This document shows, piece after piece, positions 17,151 to 58,800 of a DNA stretch of 64,000 nucleotides (the first letter of the stretch is position 1; each line of letters opens with the position of its first letter). Made by a program: the position numbers and the translations under genes. This DNA is from Mobula hypostoma (Eukaryota). The stretch is from the NCBI RefSeq assembly GCF_963921235.1, contig NC_086097.1:85376001-85440000 (forward strand), in the 5' to 3' direction. A model generated the notes under the pieces. That model saw only the letters and a list, made by a program, of their open reading frames with translations, ran no database searches and was not told the origin of the DNA.

Positions 17151-18914
17151 TTGCAAACCCTGTTGGACATTGTTAATGTGGAATGCTGCAAGTCCAATTC
17201 ACTGATTTACTGGCGGACGGGGGGGAGCTGCATAGCCTTGGTTATAGCAAGGACTAGGCCTCAAGCCGTGGTGTTGCTTGCTGATTGCTGCCCAGGAGAG
17301 AGGCGTCAGAGTTGGTGCACTCCATTGGTGGTGGTGTGATGTGATGTCCAAGCTGGAGTCGGTGCTGTCCTCTGGTGATCGATCAGCGGGAGACAAGTCG
17401 TTTTGTGTTTGACTGCAGATTTCTGCAACATCCATGGACTCAGTGTCCTGGACTATATTTTTTGTGATTGGATTTTATTGTATCTTATATGTACTAAATG
17501 TGACTTGCGCTGTGTGTGACTGTTGGTACTGTGTGTTGCCCCTTGGCCATGAAGTAATGCTGTTTTATTTGGCTGTATTCATGGGTATTTGTGTATTGTT
17601 AAATGACCATTAAACTTGAACTAAGTATGAAAACTTGGCTACAGACCCATCGATTATGTCATCCACAACATTGACATATAATTTGAAAAGAAGCGGTGTG
17701 AATCCTGATGCCAGCAGAACACTACTTGTCATCGGCAACTAACCAGGAAAGTTCTTTAATCCCACTCTGTCTCCTACCAGCCAATCTTCTAAACATTCCA
17801 GTATCAGATTATATCACAGTAAAAAGTACAAAACAGATCTCCGTAACTTTCTTGGTTGCATTGGCACTTTAAAAGAGTATTTTTATAGGACTCTTACTAT
17901 GAAAAGTGTTACTATTCACTGTAGGTTTGACTGTTATCATGTATAGGCAATCTAACACAATCTTATGATAGAATTTTATAAGATTGTGGGAGGCATAGAT
18001 ACTGTAAACAGGCAGACTACATTTTTTTCCCAGTGGAGCTATGTTAAATCCTAAAGACAATGCATTTAAAGTGAGAGGGAGAAAGTTTAGAGATTTGCGG
18101 GGCAAGTATTTTTTCACATCTCTACGGTAGGTACCTAGTGGAAGTGGTGGAAACAAGCATGATAATGGCTTAAAGAGGCTGTTAGGCACATAACTATCCA
18201 AGAGACGGAAGGGGGTGGATCATCTACAGGCAGAAGAGATTTATTTTAATTTGGTATTGTATTCACGGAATCTGTTCCTGTGCCACACTTGTCTGTGATA
18301 ATGATCAGGGTTTAAAATGAAATTGTCTGTAAAGAGTTAATACCAGAAAATAGTAACACCACCTAATGTCTGAAGTAGAACCTTCCTATCAATACATTTT
18401 AAATCAGTGCCTAAAGAGGTGGATTTTATCAGTAGATGACAAATGAACAACAATTGCCAAACTTGAATTAATCATCCAGTTGAACAAGTGAAGGAAAGTC
18501 AACATTGATTGTTTATTCATTGCCATAGATGCTGTCTGACCCACTGAGTTCATCCAGCAGTTTGTGTGTGTTGCTCTAGATTTCCAGCATCTGTAGAATC
18601 TCTTGTGTTTATAAATACTTTCCATTATCATTCTGTCTTGGACCTTAATGAAACTGCTAACAATCTGATGCATTGGCTACAGGCTGTGATTTATTACCCT
18701 GAGTAATCTTACCTTCTGCATCAAAGGCAAACACTCTTGGTCTATCACTGACAATCTAGCAAAGAGATGAAAGGTGTAAAGAGTATCATCTGTACCCCTG
18801 CATATCACAAAATCCTGAAATTTGACCACATGTGGAAATAGGCACAAGATTCTGGCAGGGCTCCACATTCACCTATAAAAAGGATTTCAGGGAGCAATTT
18901 GAAACTTTTGCTCT

Positions 18915-33124: not shown

Positions 33125-33310
33125 CACAATGCACACCAAATGCTGGAGGAACTCAGCAGGGCAGGCAGCGTCTACGGAAATGAGTAAACAGTCGACATTT
33201 TGAGCTGAGACCCTTCTTCAGGACTGAGAAGGAGGGGGAAAACGCCAGAATAAAAAGATGCGGGGTGGGTAAGGAGGCTAGCTGGAAGGTGGTAGGGGAA
33301 ATAAGGTGGC
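33125..33310 (-). mobile_element. Penelope-like terminal repeat with degenerate hammerhead
   Basis: Minus 33226-33189 reads cagtc CTGAAGA agggtctcagctc AAAA tgtc gactg; same family as 52645-52737. Confidence 0.7.
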
Positions 33311-33431: not shown

Positions 33432-36310
33432 ACATAGAAACATAGAAAATAGGTGCAGGAGTAGGCCATTCGGCCCTTCGAGCCTGCACCGCCATTTATT
33501 ATGATCATGGCTGATCATCCAACTCAGAACCCTGCACCAGCCTTCCCTCCATACCCCCTGATCCCCATAGCCACAAGGGCCATATCTAACTCCCTCTTAA
33601 ATACAGCCAATGAACTGGCCTCAACTGTTTCCTGTGGCAGAAATTTCCACAGATTCACCACTCTCTGTGTGAAGAAGTTTTTCCTAATCTCGGTCCTAAA
33701 AGGCTTCCCCTTTATCCTCAAACGGTGACCTCTCGTTCTGGACTTCCCCAACATCGGGAACAATCTTCCTGCATCTAGCCTGTCCAATCCCTTTAGGATT
33801 TTATACGTTTCAATTAGATCCCCCCTCAATCTTCTAAATTCCAACGAGTACAAGCCCAGTTCATCCAGTCTTTCTTCATATGAAAGTCCTGTCATCCCAG
33901 GAATCAATCTGGTGAACCTTCTTTGTACTCCTTCTATGGCAAGGATGTCTTTCCTCAGATTAGGGGACCAAAACTGCACACAATACTCCAGGTGTGGTCT
34001 CACCAAGGCCTTGTACAACTGCAGTAGTACCTCCCTGCTCCTGTACTCGAACCCTCTCGCTATAAATGCCAGCATACCATTCGCTTTTTTCACCGCCTGC
34101 TGTACCTGCATGCCCACTTTCAATGACTGGTGTATAATGACACCCAGGTCTTGTTGCACCTCCCCTTTTCCTAATCGGCCACCATTCAGATAATAATCTG
34201 TTTTCCTATTTTTGCCACCAAAGTGGATAACTTCACATTTATCCACATTAAATTGCATCTGCCATGAATTTGCCCACTCACCCAACCTATCCAAGTCACC
34301 CTGCATCCTCTTAGCATCCTCCTCACAGCTAACACTGCCGCCCAGCTTCGTGTCATCCGCAAACTTGGAGATGCTGCATTTAATTCCCTCATCCAAGTCA
34401 TTAATATATATTGTAAACAACTGGAGTCCCAGCACTGAGCCTTGCGGTACCCCACTAGTCACTGCCTGCCATTCTGAAAAGGTCCCGTTTATTCCCACTC
34501 TTTGCTTCCTGTCTGCTAACCAATTCTCTATCCACATCAATACCTTACCCCCAATACCGCGTGCTTTAAGTTTGCACACTAATCTCCTGTGTGGGACCTT
34601 GTCAAAAGCCTTTTGAAAATCCAAATATACCACATCCACTGGTTCTCCCCTATCCACTCTACTAGTTACATCCTCAAAAAATTCTATGAGATTCGTCAGA
34701 CATGATTTTCCTTTCACAAATCCATGCTGACTTTGTCCGATGATTTCACCGCTTTCCAAATGTGCTGTTATCACATCTTTGATAACTGACTCCAGCAGTT
34801 TCCCCACCACTGACGTTAGGCTAACCGGTCTATAATTCCCAGGTTTCTCTCTCCCTCCTTTTTTAAAAAGTGGGGTTACATTAGCCACCCTCCAATCCTC
34901 AGGAACTAGTCCAGAATCTAACGAGTTTTGAAAAATTATCACTAATGCATCCACTATTTCTTGGGCTACTTCCTTAAGCACTCTGGGATGCAGACCATCT
35001 GGCCCTGGGGATTTATCTGCCTTTAATCCCTTCAATTTACCCAACACCACTTCCCTACTAACATGTATTTCGCTCAGTTCCTCCATCTCACTGGACCCTC
35101 TGTCCCCTACCTTTCTGGAAGATTATTTATGTCCTCCTTAGTGAAGACAGAACCAAAGTAATTATTCAATTGGTCTGCCATGTCCTTGCTCCCCATAATC
35201 AATTCACCTGTTTCTGTTTGTAGGGGACCTACATTTGTCTTTACCAGTCTTTTCCTTTTTACATATCTATAAAAGCTTTTACAGTCAGTTTTTATGTTCC
35301 CTGCCAGTTTTCTCTCATAATCTTTTTTCCCCTTCCTAATTAAGCCCTTTGTCCTCCTCTGCTGAACTCTGAATTTCTCCCAGTCCTCAGGTGAGCAGCT
35401 TTTTCTGGCTAATTTGTATGCTTCTTCTTTGGAATTGATACTATCCCTAATTTCTCTTGTCAGCCACAGGTGCACTACCTTCCTTGATTTATTCTTTTGC
35501 CAAACTGGGATGAACAATTGTAGTTCATCCATGCAATTCTTAAATGCTTGCCATTGCATATCCACCGTCAATCCTTTAAGTGTCATTTGCCAGTCTATCT
35601 TAGCTAATTCACGTCTCATACCTTCAAAGTTACCCCTCTTTAAGTTCAGAACCTTTGTTTCTGAATTAACTATGTCACTCTCCATCTTAATGAAGAATTC
35701 CACCATATTATGGTCACTCTTACCCAAGGGGCCTCTCACGACAAGATTGCTAATTAACCCTTCCTCATTGCTCAAAACCCAGTCTAGAATAGCCTGCTCT
35801 CTAGTTGGTTCCTCGACATGTTGGTTCAAAAAACCATCCCGCATACATTCCAAGAAATCCTCTTCCTCAGCACCTTTACCAATTTGGTTCACCCAATCTA
35901 CATGTAGTTTGAAGTCACCCATTATAACTGCTGTTCCTTTATTGCACACATTTCTAATTTCCTGTTTAGTACCATCTCCGACCTCACTACTACTCTTAGG
36001 TGGCCTGTACACAACTCCTACCAGCGTTTTCTGCCCCTTAGTGTTATGCAGCTCTACCCATATCAATTCCACATCTTCCCGGCTTATGTCCTTCCTTTCT
36101 ATTGCGTTAATCTCATCTTTAACCAGCAACGCCACCCCACCTCCTTTTCTTTCATGTCTATCCCTCCTGCATATTGAATATCCCTGAACGTTGAGCTCCC
36201 ATCCTTGGTCACCCTGGAGCCATGTCTCTGTGATCCCAACTATGTCATAATCATTAATAGCTATCTGCACTTTCAATTCATCCACCTTGTTACAAATGCT
36301 CCTTGCATCC
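33432..36310 (-). mobile_element. Young CR1 LINE, ORF2 almost intact (EN 36310-35107, RT 35086-33524), 5'-truncated
   Basis: 410-aa and 520-aa ORFs (ETWL, DWVL, SDH; QHGF, DFQKAFD, PQGS, FADD) joined by one frameshift near 35110; (TTTCTATG)n tail. Confidence 0.97.
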
Positions 36311-37160
36311 CTTACATCTAGGCCTCTAGTCCATGCCACATGCTTGGGGATAAAAGTAGAACTCAGATGAGCTGCCTTTGGTGCTGCTTTGAGTTCAGCA
36401 ACATGGTGGATTTATTGTGGAACAAATAAAGGAGGTTTGTAGCTTGCCCAGGGGAGCAGATGGTATCAGCTTTAAAATCATGGCCAACGTGAGAGCAGTG
36501 TGTTTATTTAATACTATTATTTTAGTGTCTGTGATTTACTGTTCTTCCTCTTCCACCATTTACCACGAATTGTGTACTTGCTGATAAACCAGCTTGAAAG
36601 TTACAGTGATTCATAAGTCCTGCTGCTAGCTGTCCAGTACCCAAGGTCACGGTGATGAATATGCCCTGCTATTAACTGTTCCCTACACAGACTCGGTGCG
36701 CTGAGAGCCTCATGCTGTCACATGCCCACTCAGAGAGGAGTAAGACCACCCTTTTCTCACACTTCAATATGTCTTCCTCACAATAACTGGCTATTCAGAC
36801 ACAAAGAGATGTCCCTGCCACCATTGGAGATGATGGCTGACTCCTCCTCTCAACTGTCACTCCACACCATGTGATAGGCGCGCCTTGCTGCCAACTGCTC
36901 CCAACGCACTGTTGTAGGATGATCATGGACTCCTCTCACGTTCTGAGTGATGATGGTGCTCGGCTCTTGATAGACCCCCAACGAAACTTGAGAGCATGAG
37001 TTTAAGGAGAGAGGGGAAAGATTTAAAGGGGACCTGAGTGGCAGGTTTATAACACAGGTGGGTATATAGACCGGGCTGCCTGACAAGGTGGTAGAGGCAG
37101 GTACAATTATAACATTTAAAGAGTGTTTAGATAGATACATGGAAAGGCATGGTTTGGATG

Positions 37161-40574: not shown

Positions 40575-41275
40575 TACACACAGAGGAGCTGAAGGAACAC
40601 ATTGGGCCAGGCAACATCTAGGGAGGGAAATGGCCAGTTGACATTTTGGGTCGAGACACGTCATCAGGCTTGGAAAGGAAGAGGGGACGTAGCCAGTATA
40701 AAAAGGTGGGGGAAAGGAGTGGAGCAGGAGCTCGTGGGTGATAGGTGGATCTTGGTCAGGGGAGGGCGAGAATGGGAATTATGCAAGAAGCTGGGAGGTG
40801 TTTGGGGAAATGACAAACAGCTGAGTAAGATAGAATTTGTTGGCGAGGACAGTGGAACATGGAATAAAGGGATGTAAGTGAGGATTCCAATCGGAGGAAT
40901 GTGTGTGTGATGGGCAGATTGAGAGAACGAGTCAGGGTAAGGAAATGGGGTGATGGGGGTCAGTGGACTGGTTACCAGATGTTTGAGGAGTCAAAATTCA
41001 TGCCTTTAGATGGAGAATACCAAGGCAGAATGTGAGGTACCGTTCCTCTAATCTATGCCTAGCATCAACTCAGCAGCAGAGGAGGTTGTGGGCAGACATG
41101 TCGGTGTAAGAACGGGAAGTGGAGTTTCAAAAGGTGGTGCGGTGGATGGAGTGAAGATGCTTGATGTGTCAGGTGTGGAGGAGGCAGCACCAGGAGTACT
41201 GAATGCATCAAGTGACACTGAAAGACTCAGATGTGAAGAACTGCCTCCCCTGGCAGTACGGTTTGAATGGAGGAG
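40575..41275 (-). mobile_element. Penelope-like element remnant (GIY-YIG region plus terminal repeat)
   Basis: Minus peptide FTSESFSVT*CIQYSWCCLLH resembles Penelope FTC.S..VIYCI.CS.CGLLYIGET; degenerate hammerhead CTGATGA..AAAA at 40670-40635. Confidence 0.6.
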
Positions 41276-49349: not shown

Positions 49350-50760
49350 TCTTTCTCTCCCTTGGTTAATGACTCACATGCTAAAACTGTTCCTACAGAA
49401 AGAGTTGGAGACAAGTCTCACTGGACAGCAGGTAGAGCTGAGAAGCCCTCTTCCTATTGTATAAGGGGGCAAAGAAGGTGAAGGCTTACAGTTACTCAAA
49501 GTTACAAACTTAGCTGTTATAGACAGTGTTATGTTGTTGAGATTAAGTGTGTACAAAGCAGATATACAGTATGTTATCCTAGAAAATAGATCCTGCAGTG
49601 CTGTTTTATGAATCAGTGCATGAACAGGAATTGATGTTATCTCTAGTAGATCAGACTGAGTGAAAACACACCGATCAAGAGACTGGGCATGTTGTTCCAC
49701 ATTCCTGGTGTCAGGTGGATACCTTGTTATATATCGCAAGGTTCACACTTAAGCTTAAAGCCCTGCACAATGACTGCCATGGAATAGTCTTACCAGAACT
49801 AGGAGTACACTTTGCTTTCCTCACTGAAAGGGACACTCTGCTGACATTTGAAGACTTGGTAACCTTCACGATTGGATGCTTCCTAATCAAAACTTCCAAC
49901 CTCCGCAGAGTAGGCTACAGCTAATAGGCAGTGCTTTCTCCAACATATAGATGTTCACTCCAGGAGTGTCACTGTGGGCTGCTCTCCAATTGCTAAAGGT
50001 ATTATGATAGTTTGGCCACTCAGGCAGGGTAGGAGGGCTCGTGGCAAAGTACACATCCATCAGTGAGGAGTCTACAGGAAAACGTCATCTGATCTGCACT
50101 CTCCTGAAGAACAATTGCTCTGTATGCTCGTGCTTCTCAAAGATGCACCACAGAGATTTGTGGCATCCCATGGTGTGACCTAGAGACAAACTTACAGCTT
50201 CTTTTGTAGAGGGGAAAGTATCAGTCGGTCTCTGTTTCCTGGCCACTGGCCCATTCCAGGTCTATCAATGTTGATGCTTTCTGTAGCACAAGAAATGCCA
50301 CCCAGGCACTCAACTCATTAAAGAATGGGTTCATATATTTGGATTTTGGTGACAGGAAGGTAAGTTGTCAAGCAACTGTCAGTATTGCTGGTAGACTTCT
50401 TCACATGATTTCAACATTTGGACATAGAACTGACTAACCCTGAATCACAATGGCCTGGCCCCCAACTATCTCAACTCCTCTGTGGATTTTGCATATGGTT
50501 GTTGGTGATTGCACTAGTGGAAGTGAAGGGACCATCACAATAATCAGGGCATGTCAGTCATCCTGAGTAGCAATATATACTGCTGGTGATAAATCTATAA
50601 GGTAATGAAAGGACTTTCTGAATGCTGAACTGCAATCCAAGTATGGATCATAATCTCCCAGCAGCTGTACTTCCTCACTACAAATGAGTAATGAAGCAAC
50701 AATGAGTAACCCAAAGTTAGAGCTGAAAACCACCATAGTATAGCGCCAGTAGAGCGATTA
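49350..50760 (-). pseudogene. Possible decayed env / F-type fusion glycoprotein remnant (tentative)
   Basis: Interrupted minus-strand peptides with Cys spacing KRSCKF..P.ISVVHL..TFSC..GCVLC..LLPC, then PGVNIYML; no similarity to other repeats seen in the window; impression only. Confidence 0.3.
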
Positions 50761-50860
50761 ACATGAGAAGCTGCCTCTCCAGAGGGGGTTACGTGTGCTG
50801 AGCTGAGTATGCTGAAGTGAAATGAAAGAAAAGGGATCTAGTGCTTTCCCGCCGTATATG

Positions 50861-51172
50861 ACGAATAAACTCTTTTTGGGCTTCCAGCTGGGTACAGGTA
50901 TCACCTGAAATGAAACTGGAGGAAAAGAATTTTTAACAGAGGTGAAGGTCTCAAAGTAAGAACTAGAATTTGATTGTAAACAAGGTGGGAGAGTGGAAAC
51001 CTGATTGGATGAGGACTAACTAATCAGGAGGCACGGACTATGGGGGTATAAATACCACCAGACTAGACATGCCCAGGCATCAACTCTGAAGAAGATAGCA
51101 GAGCTTTTCACTGAAACATTGGTTATAATTGACATCCGTACCCTGCTGGAAGCCCAAGATGAGTTTATTCAT
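50861..51172 (+). mobile_element. Penelope-like element 3' relic with inverted terminal arms
   Basis: EMKLEEKNFNRGEGL (end of GIY-YIG ORF); inverted arms 50863-50895 / 51138-51170; TATAAAT; degenerate hammerhead CTGAAGA (51086)..GAAA (51113). Confidence 0.75.
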
Positions 51173-51187
51173 GAATTGAAAGTTGTT

Positions 51188-51650
51188 ATAAGACCATAAG
51201 ATATAGGAGCAGAAGTAGGTCATTTGGCCCATTGAGTCTGCTCCACCATTCAATCATGGGCTGATCCAATTCTTCCAGTCATCCCCGCTCCCTGCCTTCT
51301 CCCCATACTCTTTGATGCCCTGGCTAATCAAGATACTATCTATCTCTGCCTTAAATGCACCCAATGATTTGGCCTCCACAGCCACTCATGGCAACAAATT
51401 CCACAGATTTACCACCCTCTGACTAAAGTAATTTCTCCGTATCTCTGTTCTAAATGGACATCCTTCAATCCTGAAGTCATGCCCTCTTGTCCTGGACTCC
51501 CCTACCATGGGAAGTAACTTTGCCATATCTAATCTGTTCAGGCCTTTTAACACATTCGGAATGTTTCTATGAGATTTCCCCCTCATTCTCTTGAACTCCA
51601 GAGAATAAAGCCCAAGAGCTGCCAGATGTTCCTCATACGGTAACCCTTTC
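51188..51650 (-). mobile_element. CR1 3' end
   Basis: GLPYEEHLAALGLYSLEF..FSQRVVNLWNLLP; ataagaccataagatat tail. Confidence 0.9.
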
Positions 51651-51945
51651 ATATTGGATCTGCTTTGACATAAGTCACCAATTTCACTGGTTTCACCACA
51701 TCCACACTCAAATGCCCCATATTCAATAAAATCTCGTTTGATGGGTTGAAATGGATTCAAATACTAGTTGGCTAAAATAATGACTACTTCACCACATACA
51801 TGTTGTCATTAAATCCTTACTTCTTCATTTCACAAAGAAGTTAGACTAGTTCCTCCCGCAATTTATTCTTCTCCTTTGCAATTTACTGCATGTGTGTCGT
51901 GGATCTGCACATGCGGCATTGTGTGTATTGCAAAAAAATCCTTAC

Positions 51946-52039
51946 TTGAATTTAAATGTCTCCCCCAATTCTGCAGCATTTCCAGGTGTGATCTCGAAGA
52001 TTCCACTGAAAGAGTACGGGTGTCCTCCATAGGCATACT
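51946..52039 (-). CDS. DESI2: DESI2-like exon 3 (94 nt), absent from the ORF track
   Basis: (E)[30 protein letters not shown](K); polypyrimidine tract tttctctgttctctttgccAG, donor GTAAGG at 51945; ends in phase 2, matching exon 4. Confidence 0.96.
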
Positions 52040-52160
52040 CTGGCAAAGAGAACAGAGAAAACGTCTCTTTAGTAAGGTTCAGCAACCCAGAGTCATGAAA
52101 TTCCTCAACAGACATTCACTAAGCACACGGCTTGATGGAAGCTATGTGCTCTACTCCACA

Positions 52161-52288
52161 ACACAAAATACTCTGCAGGTGCTGGGGTCAAAGCAACACT
52201 CACAACACGCTGGACGAACTCAGCAGGTCAGTCAACATTTCCAAAGATGCTGCCTAACATGCTGAGCTCCTCCAGCATATTGTGAGTG
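52161..52288. repeat. Fold-back (inverted) insertion derived from a Penelope-type terminal repeat
   Basis: Arms cactcacaacacgctggacgaactcagca / tgctgagctcctccagcatattgtgagtg; 15-bp direct repeat GTGCTCTACTCCACA at 52146-52160 and 52289-52303. Confidence 0.8.
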
Positions 52289-52642
52289 GTGCTCTACTCC
52301 ACACCTGAAATTTCCTCCTGTGCCATAATAAAGCAATGGGAAGTCAAAGGAGTTTAGGATGGTGGATAATCAGGAATGTAAATACTTAGCAGGGAACATA
52401 AATGAGAAGCAAAGCTCAAAGTAAATTTACTATCAAAGTACATATTTGTCACCGTATAAAACCCTGAAATTCATTTTCTTGCAGTAAATACAAAGAAACA
52501 GCAAAAAAAACCAGACAAAATAATAATAATAATAAATAAGTAAGCAATAAATATCTAGAACATGGGATGAAGAGTCCTTGTAAGTGAGTCTATAAGTTGT
52601 GTAAACAGCTCGGTGTTGGGGTGAAAAAAGTTATCCACTCTG

Positions 52643-52676
52643 GTCCTGACGAAGGGTCTCGGCCTGAAACGTCGAC
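52643..52676 (+). ncRNA. Minimal type-I hammerhead ribozyme motif (Penelope-associated)
   Basis: gtc CTGACGA (52646-52652) agg-gtctcgg-cct GAAA (52666-52669) cg TC gac; helix I gtc/gac, helix II AGG/CCT, palindromic ACGT in place of helix III; predicted cleavage after C52673. Confidence 0.75.
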
Positions 52677-52855
52677 TGCGCCTCTTCCTATAGATGCTGC
52701 TTGGCCTGCTGCGTTCACCAGCAACTTTGATGTATGTCACTCTGGTTCAAGACCTGGTGGTTGAGGGGTAATAACTGTTCCTGACTCTGGTGGTATGAGT
52801 ACTGAGGCTCCTGTACCCTCTTCCTGATGGCAGCTGTGAGAAGAGAGCATGGCCT

Positions 52856-53083
52856 TGTTTTGGTTTGTAACTCCAAAGCATAAAATTAATTGGATGAAAC
52901 ACAAGGGAGTCTGGAACGCGAGTCAAACTTTATTTTTATTTAAAGTGAGGCATGGGTATATGACATGTTGGCGTGATGACATGCCATTCACATACTTCAT
53001 GAATATAACCATAATGAGTTATTTAAACAAGCAATACATTTACAATATTATTCAAATATTACTGATATATTAAATACATAACA
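52856..53083 (-). mobile_element. Solo LTR of the Gypsy family at 13385-15141
   Basis: TG...CA ends; flanks GGCC(T) at 52851-52855 and GGCC(A) at 53084-53088; shares ccataatga.tt and caaatattactga..tattaaatac blocks with both LTRs. Confidence 0.85.
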
Positions 53084-53569
53084 GGCCAGGATGGTGAAGG
53101 TCTTTGATTGTGGATATTGCTTTCCAGTAACAGCGTTCCATATAGATGTGCTCAGTGGTGGGGATGACTTAACCTATGATAGACGGAGCTGTATACACTA
53201 ATTGTGTTGGCTTTTCTGATAAATGACATTGGTGTTTCTATACTAGGCCATGATGCAACTGCACCATGCATCTATAGAAGATTGTCAAAGTTTTAAATTT
53301 TCGTAAACTTCTAAGAAAGTAATGGCGCTGCTGTGCTATCTTTGTAATCGCATTCACATGCTAGATCCAGGACAGATCCTCTGAAATGAAAACACCAAGG
53401 AAGTTAAAGTTGCTGACTCTCTCCAGCTCTGATCCCCCATTGAGGACTGCCTCGTGGACCTTCGGTTTCCTCCTCCAGGAATCAATAACCAGCTCCTTGT
53501 TCTCACTGACATTGAGTGTAAGGTTGTTTTTGTGGCACCACTCAGCCAGATTTTCATCCTCTCTCCAAT

Positions 53570-54835
53570 ATGTCAACAGGTCAACGGCAGATGCCATCTC
53601 TCTGGCTCTACATTCCTCCTTAGAACACCTGGAGAATAAAGACACATACATAAGGCTCCTTTTCATTGACTACAGCTCTGCCTTTAATACCATCATTCCA
53701 AATAAACTGATCCTAAGCTCTGGAACCTGGGCCTTAACACTTAGATCTGCAGCTGGATCTTCAACTTCCTCACAGACAGGATCCAAGCTGTAAAAATAGG
53801 GGACAAGCTCTCCTCTGCAATCACTCTGAGCACCGGTGCCCCACAAGGCTGTGTACTCAGGCCCCTGCTGTTCTCACTGTACACCCATGATCGCGTAGCC
53901 AAGTTTCCATCAAACTCAATATATAAGTTTGCTGGTGACATCACAATTGAAGGCCGTATCTCGGGTAATGATGAGTTTGAGTACAGCAAGGAAATTAAGA
54001 ACCTGGTGGCATGGTGCAAAGACAATTACCTATCCCTCAATGTCAGCAAGGCGAAGGAATTGGTTGTTGACTTCAGAAGAAGTAGCGGACTGCACGACCC
54101 CATTTACATCAGTGATGCGCAAGTGGAACAGGTTAAAAGCTTTAAGTTCCTTGGGGTCAGTATCACAAATGACCTGACTTGGTCCAACCAAGCACAGTCC
54201 ACTGCCAAGAAGGCCCACCAATGCCTCTACTTCCTGAGGAAGCTAAGGAAATTTGGCCTGTCCCCTAAAACCCTCACTAATTTTTATAGATGCACCGTAG
54301 AAAGCATTCTTCTGGGGTGCATCACAACCTGGTATGGAAGCTGTCCTGTCCAAGACCGGAAGAAGCTGCAGAGGATCACGAACATAGCGCAGCACATCAC
54401 ACATACCAATTTTCTGTCCTTGGACTCACTTTACACCGCACGCTGCCGGAGCAGTGCTGCCAGGATAATCAAGGACATGACCCACCTAGCCAACACACTT
54501 TTCATCCCTCTTCCCTCCGGGAGAAGGCTCAGGAGCTTGAAGACTCATATGGCCAGATTTGGGAACAGCTTCTTTCCAACTGTGATAAGACTGCTGAACG
54601 GATCCTGACCCAGATCGGGCCGTACCCTCCAAATATCCCGACCTGCCTCTCGGTTTTTTTTGCACTACCTTACTTTCCCTTTTCTATTTTCTATTTATGA
54701 TTTATAATTTAAATTTTTAATATTTACTATCAATTTGTACTTCAGGGAGCATGAAGAGCAGAATCAAATATCGCTGTGATGATTGTATGCTCTAGTATCA
54801 ATTGTTTGGCGACAATAAAGTATAAAGTGTAAAGT
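53570..54835 (+). mobile_element. Rex/Babar RT/3' fragment nested in the minus-strand Rex
   Basis: [30 protein letters not shown] 54006-54608; AATAAAG(TATAAAG) tail. Confidence 0.9.
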
Positions 54836-55886
54836 ATATGCTGATTCATCACCATCTTTGATTTGGCCAGCAAGAGTGGTGTCATCAGTAAAGTTAAATA
54901 TGGCATTGGAGCTGTTCTTAACCTCACAGTTGTAAGTAAAAAAAAGTAGAGTCGGGGGCTAAGCACGCAGCCAAATTGACTGAGGTCTGCAAGGGAGGAA
55001 GTCGAGGATCCAATTGCACAAAGAGGTATTGAGGCCAAGGCCTTGAAGCTTATTGATTAGTTTTGATGGGATGAAAGTATTGAATGACAAGCTGTGGTCA
55101 CTGATGAGCATCCTGATGTATATATCTTCTCTGTCTGGATGTTCCAAGGTTCAGTGAAGATCCAGTGAAATGGCATCTGCTGTTGACCTGTTGAGATGCT
55201 AGGCAAACTGGAGAAATTCTGAGTCTATCCTCAGGCAGGAGTTGACATGTTCATCACCGACCTCTCAAAGCTCTTCATCATAGAGGATGTATATTCTACA
55301 GGATGATAGTCTTTGAGGCAGTTTATCACTTTCTTCTTAGGCACCGGTATAACTGAAGCTTGCTTGAAGCAGATGGGTACCTCAGACTGCCAAAGCGAGA
55401 GTTTAAAGATATCAGTGAACACTCCAGACAGTTGATCAGCGCACGTCTTCAGTACTCAGACAGGAACACTGGCTAGGCTGGAAACTTACCATAGCTTCAC
55501 CCTCCTGAATAATGCTCTCATGTTGGTCTGAGAGACTGAAATCACGGGTTCATAGAGAGCTGTGGGAGCTCCTGGAGGTGTCTCCATGTTTTGATGGCTA
55601 AAGCGAGCATAAAAGGCATTGAACTCATTTGGGAACAAATCCTTGTTGTCACTATGTCAATTGGTCTCACTTTGTAGGAGGTGATAGCATTCAAGCCTTA
55701 TCACAGCTATCGAACATTCTTCAATGTCTTGAGTTTGGTCCGGTATTGCCAAGTCACATGTGAGATGGCTTTCTGGAGGTTGCACCTAGACCTTTTGTAT
55801 TTTACTTGGTCAGCAGAACTGAATACCACTGATCTAGCCCTCTGAAGATTACAGATCTCTTTGTTTATTTAGGCCTTCTCTTTGGG

Positions 55887-58800
55887 CAGTAATCTCGGGA
55901 TTGCTGCAGGTGGCATGCATCATGAGGTGCATAAGATGATTTGGCAGATGAATGCATGGCTGAGAAACTGGTGCAGGGAACAGGGGTTCTGATTTCTGGA
56001 TCATTAGGATCTCTTCTGGGTCTGGGGGAGTGAGGTACGACCTATACAAAAGGGGCAGGTTGCACTTGAACCCCAGAGGAACCAATATCCTTGCTAGAGC
56101 AACGAATATGGTAGGGGGGTGGGATCCAGTGTTAGGGCTGAGGAAGAGCAGTTGGTTTACAAACAGAGACAGTGTGTAGTGAGACTACTAGTAAGGAGAG
56201 CCTGATGATAGGGCAAAATTGGAGTCAATGGGATGAGCTGCAATGTAAAAGGGGGACCAAAATCAAAAAGAGTGATGAATACTTGACTGAGGTGTTATAT
56301 TTGAATGCATGTAGTATACAAAATAAAATAGATGAACTTGTAGTACAATTACAGATTAGCATGTATGATGTTGTGGGCATCACTGAGTTGTGTCTGAAAG
56401 AAGATTATAGCTGGGAGCTTAATGTCCAAGGACACACTTTACATCAAAAGGACAGACAAGTAGGCAGAGAAGATGGGGTGGCTCCATTGGTAAAAAGTGA
56501 AACCAAATCACTAGAAAGAAGTGACATAGGGTCATAAGGTGCAGAATCATTGTGGATTGAACTAAGCAAACTGCAGAGGTAATAAAGACCCCAATGGGAG
56601 TTATAGATAGACCTACAAATGGTAGCATAGATGTGGTTTACAATTTACAATTGGAGATAGAAAATGCATCTAAAAAGGCAATAGTATGATAGCCATGGGA
56701 GATTTCAATAATCAGGTAGATTGGGAAAATCAAGTTGGTGCTGGATCCCAAGAGGGGGTATGCCTACGTAATAACTTTTTTAGAGCAGCTCATTGTAGAG
56801 CCCACAGATATTCTGGATTGGGTGTTGTGCAACAATCCAGAATTGATTAGAGAGCTTAAGGCAAAGGAACCCTGAAGAGACAGTGATCATACTATTATAG
56901 AATTCAGAGTATGAAGACCATAAGACAAAGGAGCAGGAGTCGGCCATTTGGCCCATCGAGTCTGCTTCACCATTTTATCATGAAATATGAGAAAGAGAAG
57001 CTAAAGTCAGACGTATCAGTATTACAGTGGAGAAAAGGGAATTACAAAGGCATGAAAGAGGATTTGGCCAAAATTAATTAAATAAGAACACTGGCAGGGA
57101 TGACTACAGAGCAGCAGTGGCTAGAGTTTCTGGAAGTAATTTGGAAAGCACAGGATAGATACATCCCAAAGAAGAAGAAGTATACTAAAGGCAGGATGAT
57201 GCAACCGTGGCTAACAAGAGAAGACAAAGTCAACATAAAAGCCAAAGAGAGAGCATATAATACTGCAAAAATTAGTAGGAAGATACAGTAGAGGATTAGG
57301 AAGCTTTTAAAATCCAACAGAAGGGAACTTCAAAAGTCATAAAAGGAGAAGATGGAATACAAAGCCAATAATATTAAAGAGGATACCAAAAGTTTCTTCA
57401 CATATAAAAAGTGTAAGAGATGAGAATAGATATTGGACTGCTGGAAAACAATCCTGGAGAGGTAGTAATGGGGGGCAAGGAAATGATGGACAAACTGAAA
57501 AAGTATTTTGTATAAGTCTTCACTGTGCAAGACACTTGCAGAATGGTGGAGGTTCGAGAGGGTCAGGAGGCAGAAGTAAGTGAAGTTGCCATTACTAGGG
57601 AGAATGTGCTTGAGAAACTAAAAGGTCTGAAGGTAGATAAGTCACCTGGACCAGATGGTCTACACCCCAGGGTTCTGAAAGAGGTGGCTGAAGAGATTGT
57701 GAGGCTTGTAATGATTTTTCAAGAATAAATGGATTCTGGCATGGTTCTGAAGACTGGAAATTGCAAATTTCACTCCACTGATCTTGAAGAGAGAGAGGCA
57801 GAAGAAAGAAAATTACAGGCCAGTTAGTCTGACCCTAGTGGTTGGGAAGATGTTGGAGTCCATTGTTCAGGATGTGTTTCAGGGTTCTTGGAGGCACATG
57901 ATAAAGCTGGCTAAAGTCAACATGATTTCCTTAAGGGAAAATCATGCCTGACAAATTTGTTGGAATGCTTTGAAGAAATAACAAGCCTGATAGACAAAGG
58001 AGAATTGGTGGATGGTGTGAACTTAGATTTTCAGAAGGCCTTTGACAAGGTGCCACACATAAGGCTGCTTAACAAGTTAAGAGCCCATAGTATTACAGGA
58101 AAGATACTATCATGGATAGAGGATTAGCTGATTGGCAGGAGACAAAGAGTGGGAATAAAGGGAGCCTTTTCTGGATGGCTGCTAATGATCAGTGGTATTC
58201 CACAGGGGTCTGTGTTGGGACTGCTTCATTGTTTTTGATGAAGGAATTGATGGCTTTGTGACCAAATTTGTGTTTGATATGAAAATAGGTGGAAGGCACA
58301 TAGTGTTGATGAAGCAGATAGGGTACAGAAGGACTTAGACAGACAGAAGAATAGAAGTGACAGATGGAATATAGTGCCGGGAAGTGTATGGCCACGCATT
58401 TTGTAAAAGAAATATAATTATAGACTATATTCTAAATGAAGAGAAAATTCAAAATCTGAGGTGCAAAGGGACTTGGAGTCCTTGTGCAGATTCCCTAAAA
58501 GTTAATTTGCAGATTGTGTCAGGGCTGAGGAAGGCAAATGCAATGTATTCATTTTGAGAGTATTAGAATATAATAGCAAGGATGTAATGTTAAGGTTTTA
58601 TAAGGCACTGGTGAGACCTCATTTGGAGTATTGTGAGCAGTTCTGGGCCCCTTATCTAAGAAAGGATGTGCTGACTTTGGAAAAGACTTAAAGGAGTTTC
58701 ATGAAAATGATTCTGGAATTAAAACACTTATCATTGGAGGAGTGTTTGATCGCTCTGGGCTTGTACTCACTGGAATTCCTCAGAATAGGAGTGGGGATGG

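Follow-up and report, generated by a model that had tools for sequence, protein, structure and literature searches.

Penelope-like elements (PLEs) are characterized by a reverse transcriptase (RT) followed by a C-terminal GIY-YIG nuclease (PMC8557442), and minimal type I hammerhead ribozymes have been described in the pseudo-LTRs of metazoan PLEs, including the fish elements Xena, Poseidon, and Neptune (Cervera and De la Pena 2014, PMC4209133). Published PLE insertions have target-site duplications (TSDs) of 8-10 bp, microhomology at their 5' junctions, and optional tails (PMC3846280; PMC8557442), and PLE copies are heavily 5'-truncated (PMC8557442). For a PLE of the anole, in vitro work describes reverse transcription that starts inside the RNA at two sites bounding the tail, hammerhead cleavage that requires protein, and uncleaved RNA as the main substrate (PMC11167929).

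In a second group of hammerhead-bearing sequences, the non-LTR retrozymes, units are repeated in tandem, and two or more adjacent units each contain a complete hammerhead (PMC7229834; bioRxiv 10.64898/2026.07.22.740005). Those described by Cervera and De la Pena in 2020 measure 150-450 bp and yield circular RNA (PMC7229834), and Li, Clavereau and Pollet (2026, bioRxiv 10.64898/2026.07.22.740005) derive non-LTR retrozymes from PLE repeats. Here, we analyze a 93-bp insert that carries a hammerhead motif, within a 64-kb stretch of DNA (hereafter, the window) that is LINE-rich and has a GC content of 42%. In our assessment, this insert very probably arose by a single, ordinary retrotransposition of an abundant endonuclease-bearing PLE of a batoid-like fish, and is a 5'-truncated, tail-less copy.

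Insertion, target site, and host element

An earlier note on this DNA had described a 93-bp insertion, flanked by a 9-bp direct repeat, inside a LINE. The repeat scan recovered CACTCTGGT on both sides of the insert, bracketing 93 bp (Table 1). Pairs of identical 9-mers at the insert's spacing occur at 55 of the 63,991 positions of the window, and the direct repeat alone is therefore little proof of an insertion. Decisive evidence came from the empty site. Contigs from four runs (X1, X5, X6, and X10; 24 runs were listed) were mapped on positions 52400-52999, with all mapped run records being contigs, and the host-family consensus obtained from loose ends before 52753 has the target only once (241 contigs in X1, 255 in X6, and 253 in X10, with an agreement of 0.69-0.70). 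Because the target is single-copy in the empty site of the host family, the 9-bp duplication is genuine, and the CACTCTGGT pair is a true TSD, in agreement with the earlier description. Both TSD copies carry an A where the empty-site consensus reads C.

The claim of a LINE host was likewise confirmed. Positions 52753-52854 (minus strand) encode the C-terminus of a LINE RT ORF. The window contains further RT ORFs whose C-terminal ends are matched by this fragment (64% over 42 aa, E 2e-11), one of them with RVT_1 and PF09004 hits. The insert is antisense to the host LINE, which we take to be of the Rex (Rex1/Babar) type, and sits at the very end of the host ORF. Long open frames were also seen at 33524-35122 and 35107-36411 (minus strand; 532 and 434 aa), the first with an RVT_1 hit; together they presumably represent a young LINE of the CR1/L2 type.

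Summed contig depth over the insert amounted to 2.6-8.4 million (X1, X6), as compared to about 40-150 in the flank at 52920-52999, a measure that is not copy number and is read here only as "very abundant." One X6 contig, from organism B, covers 52561-52667 across the left junction, and its 107 nt, T52665 included, show 0 differences. With fewer than 31 letters on the insert side, this contig provides only a hint that the insertion is shared by organism B.

Table 1. Positions of the insert, its hammerhead motif, its target site and host, and its relatives in the window
Feature	Positions	Strand	Basis or partner
Insert: 3' end of a PLE pseudo-LTR, putatively 5'-truncated within helix I, without the optional tail	52645..52737	+	
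Left TSD copy, 9 bp	52636..52644	.	CACTCTGGT; repeat scan, empty-site consensus
Right TSD copy, 9 bp	52738..52746	.	Repeat scan, empty-site consensus
Host LINE 3' fragment (C-terminal end of RT ORF and 3' UTR), abundant	52410..52855	-	
Minimal type I hammerhead core, CUGA-N-GA, predicted cut after C52673	52646..52673	+	Pattern and descriptors of PMC4209133
Helix I 3' strand, GACUG	52674..52678	+	Native partner CAGUC in the 33-kb relative, 33226-33222 (minus)
33-kb relative: native pyrimidine tract and CAGTC, then decayed hammerhead (C3 at 33221), tail-less	33133..33296	-	
40-kb relative, longer and older: decayed PLE-type ORF end, 3' region, decayed hammerhead (C3 at 40667)	40575..41252	-	
Shorter PLE end, starting downstream of the hammerhead, with tail	18507-18610		
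Fold-back PLE 3' end remnant: two head-to-head arms, each tailed, no hammerhead	52160-52320		

Hammerhead motif of the insert

The motif had been read as a complete CUGANGA/GAAA/UC core with a palindromic ACGU, and all core positions were indeed found: C3-A6 at 52646-52649, G8 and A9 at 52651-52652, an extra A at 52653, GAAA at 52666-52669, the palindrome ACGU at 52669-52672, and U16.1-C17 at 52672-52673, with helix II occupying 52654-52665. Its description as an intact hammerhead was not borne out, given that the 5' strand of helix I is mostly host-derived and that base pair 10.1-11.1 is a G-U. Helix I can reach 5 bp only with host bases, two of the pairs being G-U (C-G, U-A, G-C, G-U, and U-G), with pair probabilities of 0.09-0.26 in a 55-nt fold. 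Only one of the five bases in its 5' strand (C52645) comes from the insert, the other four (52641-52644) being supplied by the left TSD copy, such that helix I is reduced to 1 bp when built from the insert alone. Since the 33-kb relative keeps the native CAGTC upstream of the core, the last GT of the target (52643-52644) constitutes a 2-nt 5' microhomology, and the 5' boundary is consequently ambiguous over 52643-52645.

In helix II, pair 10.1-11.1 is G52654-U52665, which departs from the conserved G10.1-C11.1. A G-U pair at 10.1-11.1 would lower hammerhead cleavage; our literature search found no text on this effect. At 11.1, both the 33-kb and the 40-kb relatives read C, followed at 12 by A in each case, and we infer that the pattern at 11.1 and 12 may reflect one ancestral CpG decaying on either strand.

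Pattern searches differed in how far they separated the motif from chance. The loose core pattern gave four matches in the window against a shuffle mean of 2.25, which is not above chance, whereas the core with a helix I of at least 4 bp gave two matches against a mean of 0.055 (200 shuffles). The second of these matches lies at 51081. The covariance check proposed in the earlier note did not recover the motif, as the Rfam scan of 50000-56000, run to E values of up to 1, returned no hammerhead. The one Rfam hit, MIR1033 (27 bits compared to a gathering score of 70), was rejected as spurious; it falls on the fold-back PLE remnant.

Free folding of the insert gave no hammerhead fold, with a stability not above that of shuffles (z = +1.15). 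The monomer fold favored by the energy model preserves helix II and 4 bp of helix I, with G5-G8 pairing to the cut-site segment (-10.8 kcal/mol), and the modeled dimer hammerhead scored -8.9 versus -29.9 for the best two-strand fold. The energy model does not score the hammerhead core, hence this folding evidence is weak. Among mapped contigs, C17 makes up about 93% of summed depth in both X1 and X6 and 79% in X10. The insert itself carries a minority letter at 52680, where another letter accounts for 98% in X1, and at 52701 (84%). We take the hammerhead to be a passenger (solo, presumably dimer-dependent, weakened, and probably inactive at this locus), and the insert is not a self-contained ribozyme.

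Relatives of the insert and extent of the family

None of the four other relatives examined in the window starts at the insert's 5' end; two extend upstream of it (the 33-kb and 40-kb relatives) and two are without a hammerhead. The 40-kb relative is identical to the insert in 65 of 98 columns (66%). The upstream ~100 nt of the 33-kb and 40-kb relatives align with one another, at a score attained by 0 of 200 shuffles. The DNA upstream of the insert aligns with neither of them, the scores being equaled in 186 and 135 of 200 shuffles. A tail of about 35-40 nt is found in the relatives at 18507-18610 and 52160-52320 and is absent from the insert and the 33-kb copy.

A pyrimidine tract precedes helix I in both upstream-extending relatives (33226-33245 and 40670-40690, minus strand), ending in CAG and splice-acceptor-like in the 33-kb copy. 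In Penelope of Drosophila virilis, an intron is described as ending at the 5' end of helix I (PMC4209133).

Mapped contigs likewise show the family running beyond the insert. The largest listed group of loose ends inside the element lies upstream of 52643 in all four runs, with 702 upstream loose ends among 51,504 mapped records in X1, 872 among 69,170 in X6, 537 among 33,487 in X10, and 93 among 3,475 in X5. By-eye comparison places a pyrimidine tract followed by CA at the end of their consensus, as in the 33-kb and 40-kb relatives. Among the listed rows (24 of 1,885), agreement of these upstream loose ends is 0.37-0.39 and median lengths are 106-197 nt, and some of them may be copies that stop shortly upstream and run into unique DNA. 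In two of the four runs, contigs also continue downstream beyond 52737 with a shared start, 383 of them in X6 and 56 in X5.

Link to a Penelope-like ORF

The 40-kb relative contains a decayed C-terminal ORF end, from 41252 to about 40975, with the part related to the insert lying about 310 bp downstream of it. Upstream, this PLE copy is cut off by other repeat DNA. The decayed ORF end, translated with X at its four stops, matched no Pfam family, and the word-indexed protein search gave 0 matches among eight candidates. HMMER against 1.84 billion proteins returned three hits (E 2.1e-6, 5.8e-5, and 6.0e-4), all of them proteins of the stingray Hypanus sabinus, and the nearest relatives of one such protein are from H. 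sabinus and Mobula hypostoma, pointing to a batoid-like cartilaginous fish as the source of the window. Using tblastn, four of seven proteins with an RT/PF26215/GIY-YIG architecture were found to match the window, all starting at 41252.

Domain content was traced through two proteins in particular. For P0002, 327 relatives were recovered at E values up to 1e-10, and among the best 120 of these most have PF26215, many RVT_1, and a few GIY-YIG. Its nearest Atlas clusters (score 0.96) have PF26215, with GIY-YIG on 15%-21% of members. The Pfam scan of P0002 itself found 0 families, the listing of relatives gives PF26215 for it, and 0 PDB matches were obtained. In P0003, the GIY-YIG match scores 18.7 bits, below the Pfam cut-off of 22.6. 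A CxxC linker in both P0002 and P0003 suggests that the PLE clade is of the Neptune type. Based on this chain of similarity, running through the diverged 40-kb relative, the insert's family would be the 3' repeat of a PLE with RT and GIY-YIG domains. Scans with DNA patterns gave 0 matches in metagenome contigs, viral contigs, and prokaryote genomes.

PLE-derived sequence was also seen inside the annotated ray proteins P0003, P0007, and P0009, whose host-gene names are mucin-2, divergent protein kinase domain 1C, and chitinase domain-containing 1. Their PLE content is probably due to gene-model artefacts or exonised repeats.

Origin of the insert

Family members run on at both ends of the insert, and the 40-kb relative follows a PLE-type ORF end, which together support the reading of the insert as an extremely 5'-truncated Penelope copy, one of two origins raised in the earlier note. 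Relatives extend upstream, one of them as far as the ORF end, and downstream into the tail. On its 5' side, the insert retains 29 nt ahead of the predicted cut site, and it ends 64 nt after that site, and its template was accordingly not cut there. Weighing against this origin, the ORF link rests on a relative as diverged as the 40-kb copy, and no ORF-bearing parent of the insert's exact subfamily was seen. Also on this side of the balance are the empty Pfam and word-indexed searches of the decayed ORF end, the sub-threshold GIY-YIG match of P0003, the low agreement and considerable length of the upstream loose ends, and three joints that land at 52643-52645 (see below).

Following the published behavior of PLEs, the insertion could have proceeded as follows. 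The PLE protein would have nicked the LINE fragment with a stagger of 9 bp, and reverse transcription would have begun internally on the RNA, at the start site that leaves out the tail (52737), copying 93-95 nt straight through the uncleaved hammerhead before halting in the 5' strand of helix I. The cDNA end would then have been joined to the target via the 2-nt GT microhomology, and later decay may have changed C11.1 to T at a CpG.

It has also to be considered whether the 5' ends of this amplified ray PLE family pile up at the base of helix I, with the hammerhead region setting the length of a ~93-bp class, possibly as self-propagating tandem or circular units; we regard this as unlikely. 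One version, in which the hammerhead fold or a bound protein is a preferred stop for the PLE RT in helix I and yields a recurrent ~93-bp by-product class that is not self-propagating, seems to us quite improbable. The insert's 5' end does fall inside helix I, the upstream loose ends are heterogeneous, as their low agreement shows, and three of the 15 listed joints (of 264) land at 52643-52645, namely 52410 to 52644 (three runs), 52485 to 52645 (X1), and 52676 back to 52643 (three runs). However, the reference matches the family only from 52643 on, so that joints and loose ends are expected to collect there regardless, and the intervening letters are given for one of these three joints. Moreover, no end pile-up at 52644-52646 appears among the 24 listed loose-end rows of 1,885, the contig mapping of 52400-52999 listed no site at which molecule starts or stops accumulate, and, as noted above, the relatives examined in the window begin elsewhere. 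The joint from 52676 back to 52643 is carried by two contigs per run in X1, X6, and X10, and suggests that somewhere in those genomes the hammerhead core is repeated head to tail over a short distance, an arrangement for which a dimer fold is possible in principle.

The other origin raised in the earlier note, a tiny family of retrozyme-like retroposons, would have the insert as a mini-element with a fixed unit of ~93 nt, producing tandem transcripts, dimeric cleavage, and circular RNA, and mobilised in trans by a PLE. A PLE ancestry has been proposed for non-LTR retrozymes, whose consensus sequences measure 51-972 bp and which also occur as monomer copies; the single chondrichthyan sampled contained them (bioRxiv 10.64898/2026.07.22.740005). 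In addition, the insert's terminal GT would let a head-to-tail join rebuild 3 bp of helix I, and one X6 joint (depth 75.7) connects 52732 to 52646, with three intervening letters. The joint from 52676 back to 52643 and the landing of three listed joints at 52643-52645 also count in favor of this origin, although such clustering is expected from where the reference begins to match the family. The 52732-to-52646 joint, however, leaves helix I unrestored, a stretch this rich in GT can be expected to end in GT, and no joint from 52737 to 52645 was present among the 15 and 12 joints listed (with 249 and 177 others). The copy is solo, with no tandem array at the insert locus, it lacks its own helix I 5' strand, and it starts 29 nt before the cut, whereas a monomer released by cleavage would begin at 52674 and not at 52645. 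The relatives are furthermore colinear with the PLE 3' region. The retrozyme-like family is thus not supported, and we give it very little credence.

Finally, there is next to no chance that both the direct repeat and the hammerhead-like string arose by coincidence in old repeat DNA, as could be argued from the chance-level loose core matches, the lack of an Rfam hammerhead in the region scanned, and folding no better than shuffles: the empty-site consensus already refutes it, the relatives share the motif with a native 5-bp helix I, and the motif fits the published features of minimal hammerheads (PMC4209133).

Taken as a truncated PLE copy, the insert is one of very many decayed PLE ends, of a kind described in 2014, and a tidy example of PLE insertion from RNA uncut by its hammerhead, in line with the in vitro work on the lizard element. 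The abundance of the family gives numbers with which to test the in vivo role of PLE hammerheads, on which a genome-wide peak of 5' ends at helix I or at the cut site, if true, would bear. If a recurrent ~93-bp class were real, it would be a genomic footprint of the PLE ribozyme region acting in vivo.

Comparison with known systems

No description of the ray family was found among the titles and abstract openings searched or in the main-text passages of PMC4209133 consulted. Compared to the minimal PLE hammerheads described in that source, the insert shares the complete set of core bases, the base left unpaired between 9 and 10.1, a helix I of 4-5 bp insofar as host bases contribute to it, and a palindromic segment at 15-16, as well as occurrence as a single motif, which is the predominant state there and is related by its authors to truncated PLEs. 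It differs in being without its own helix I 5' strand and in the G-U pair at 10.1-11.1. With the retrozymes (PMC7229834; bioRxiv 10.64898/2026.07.22.740005), the insert has in common a type I hammerhead, no coding capacity, and a probable PLE origin, but it is solo and its helix I is incomplete. As against the truncated PLE insertions described in PMC3846280, PMC8557442, and PMC11167929, the insert is very short (93 bp) and has no inverted 5' copy, and the optional 30-40 bp tail of such insertions is missing from it and present in some of its relatives. With those same insertions it shares the 9-bp TSD, the microhomology at the 5' junction, and a template left uncleaved by the hammerhead.
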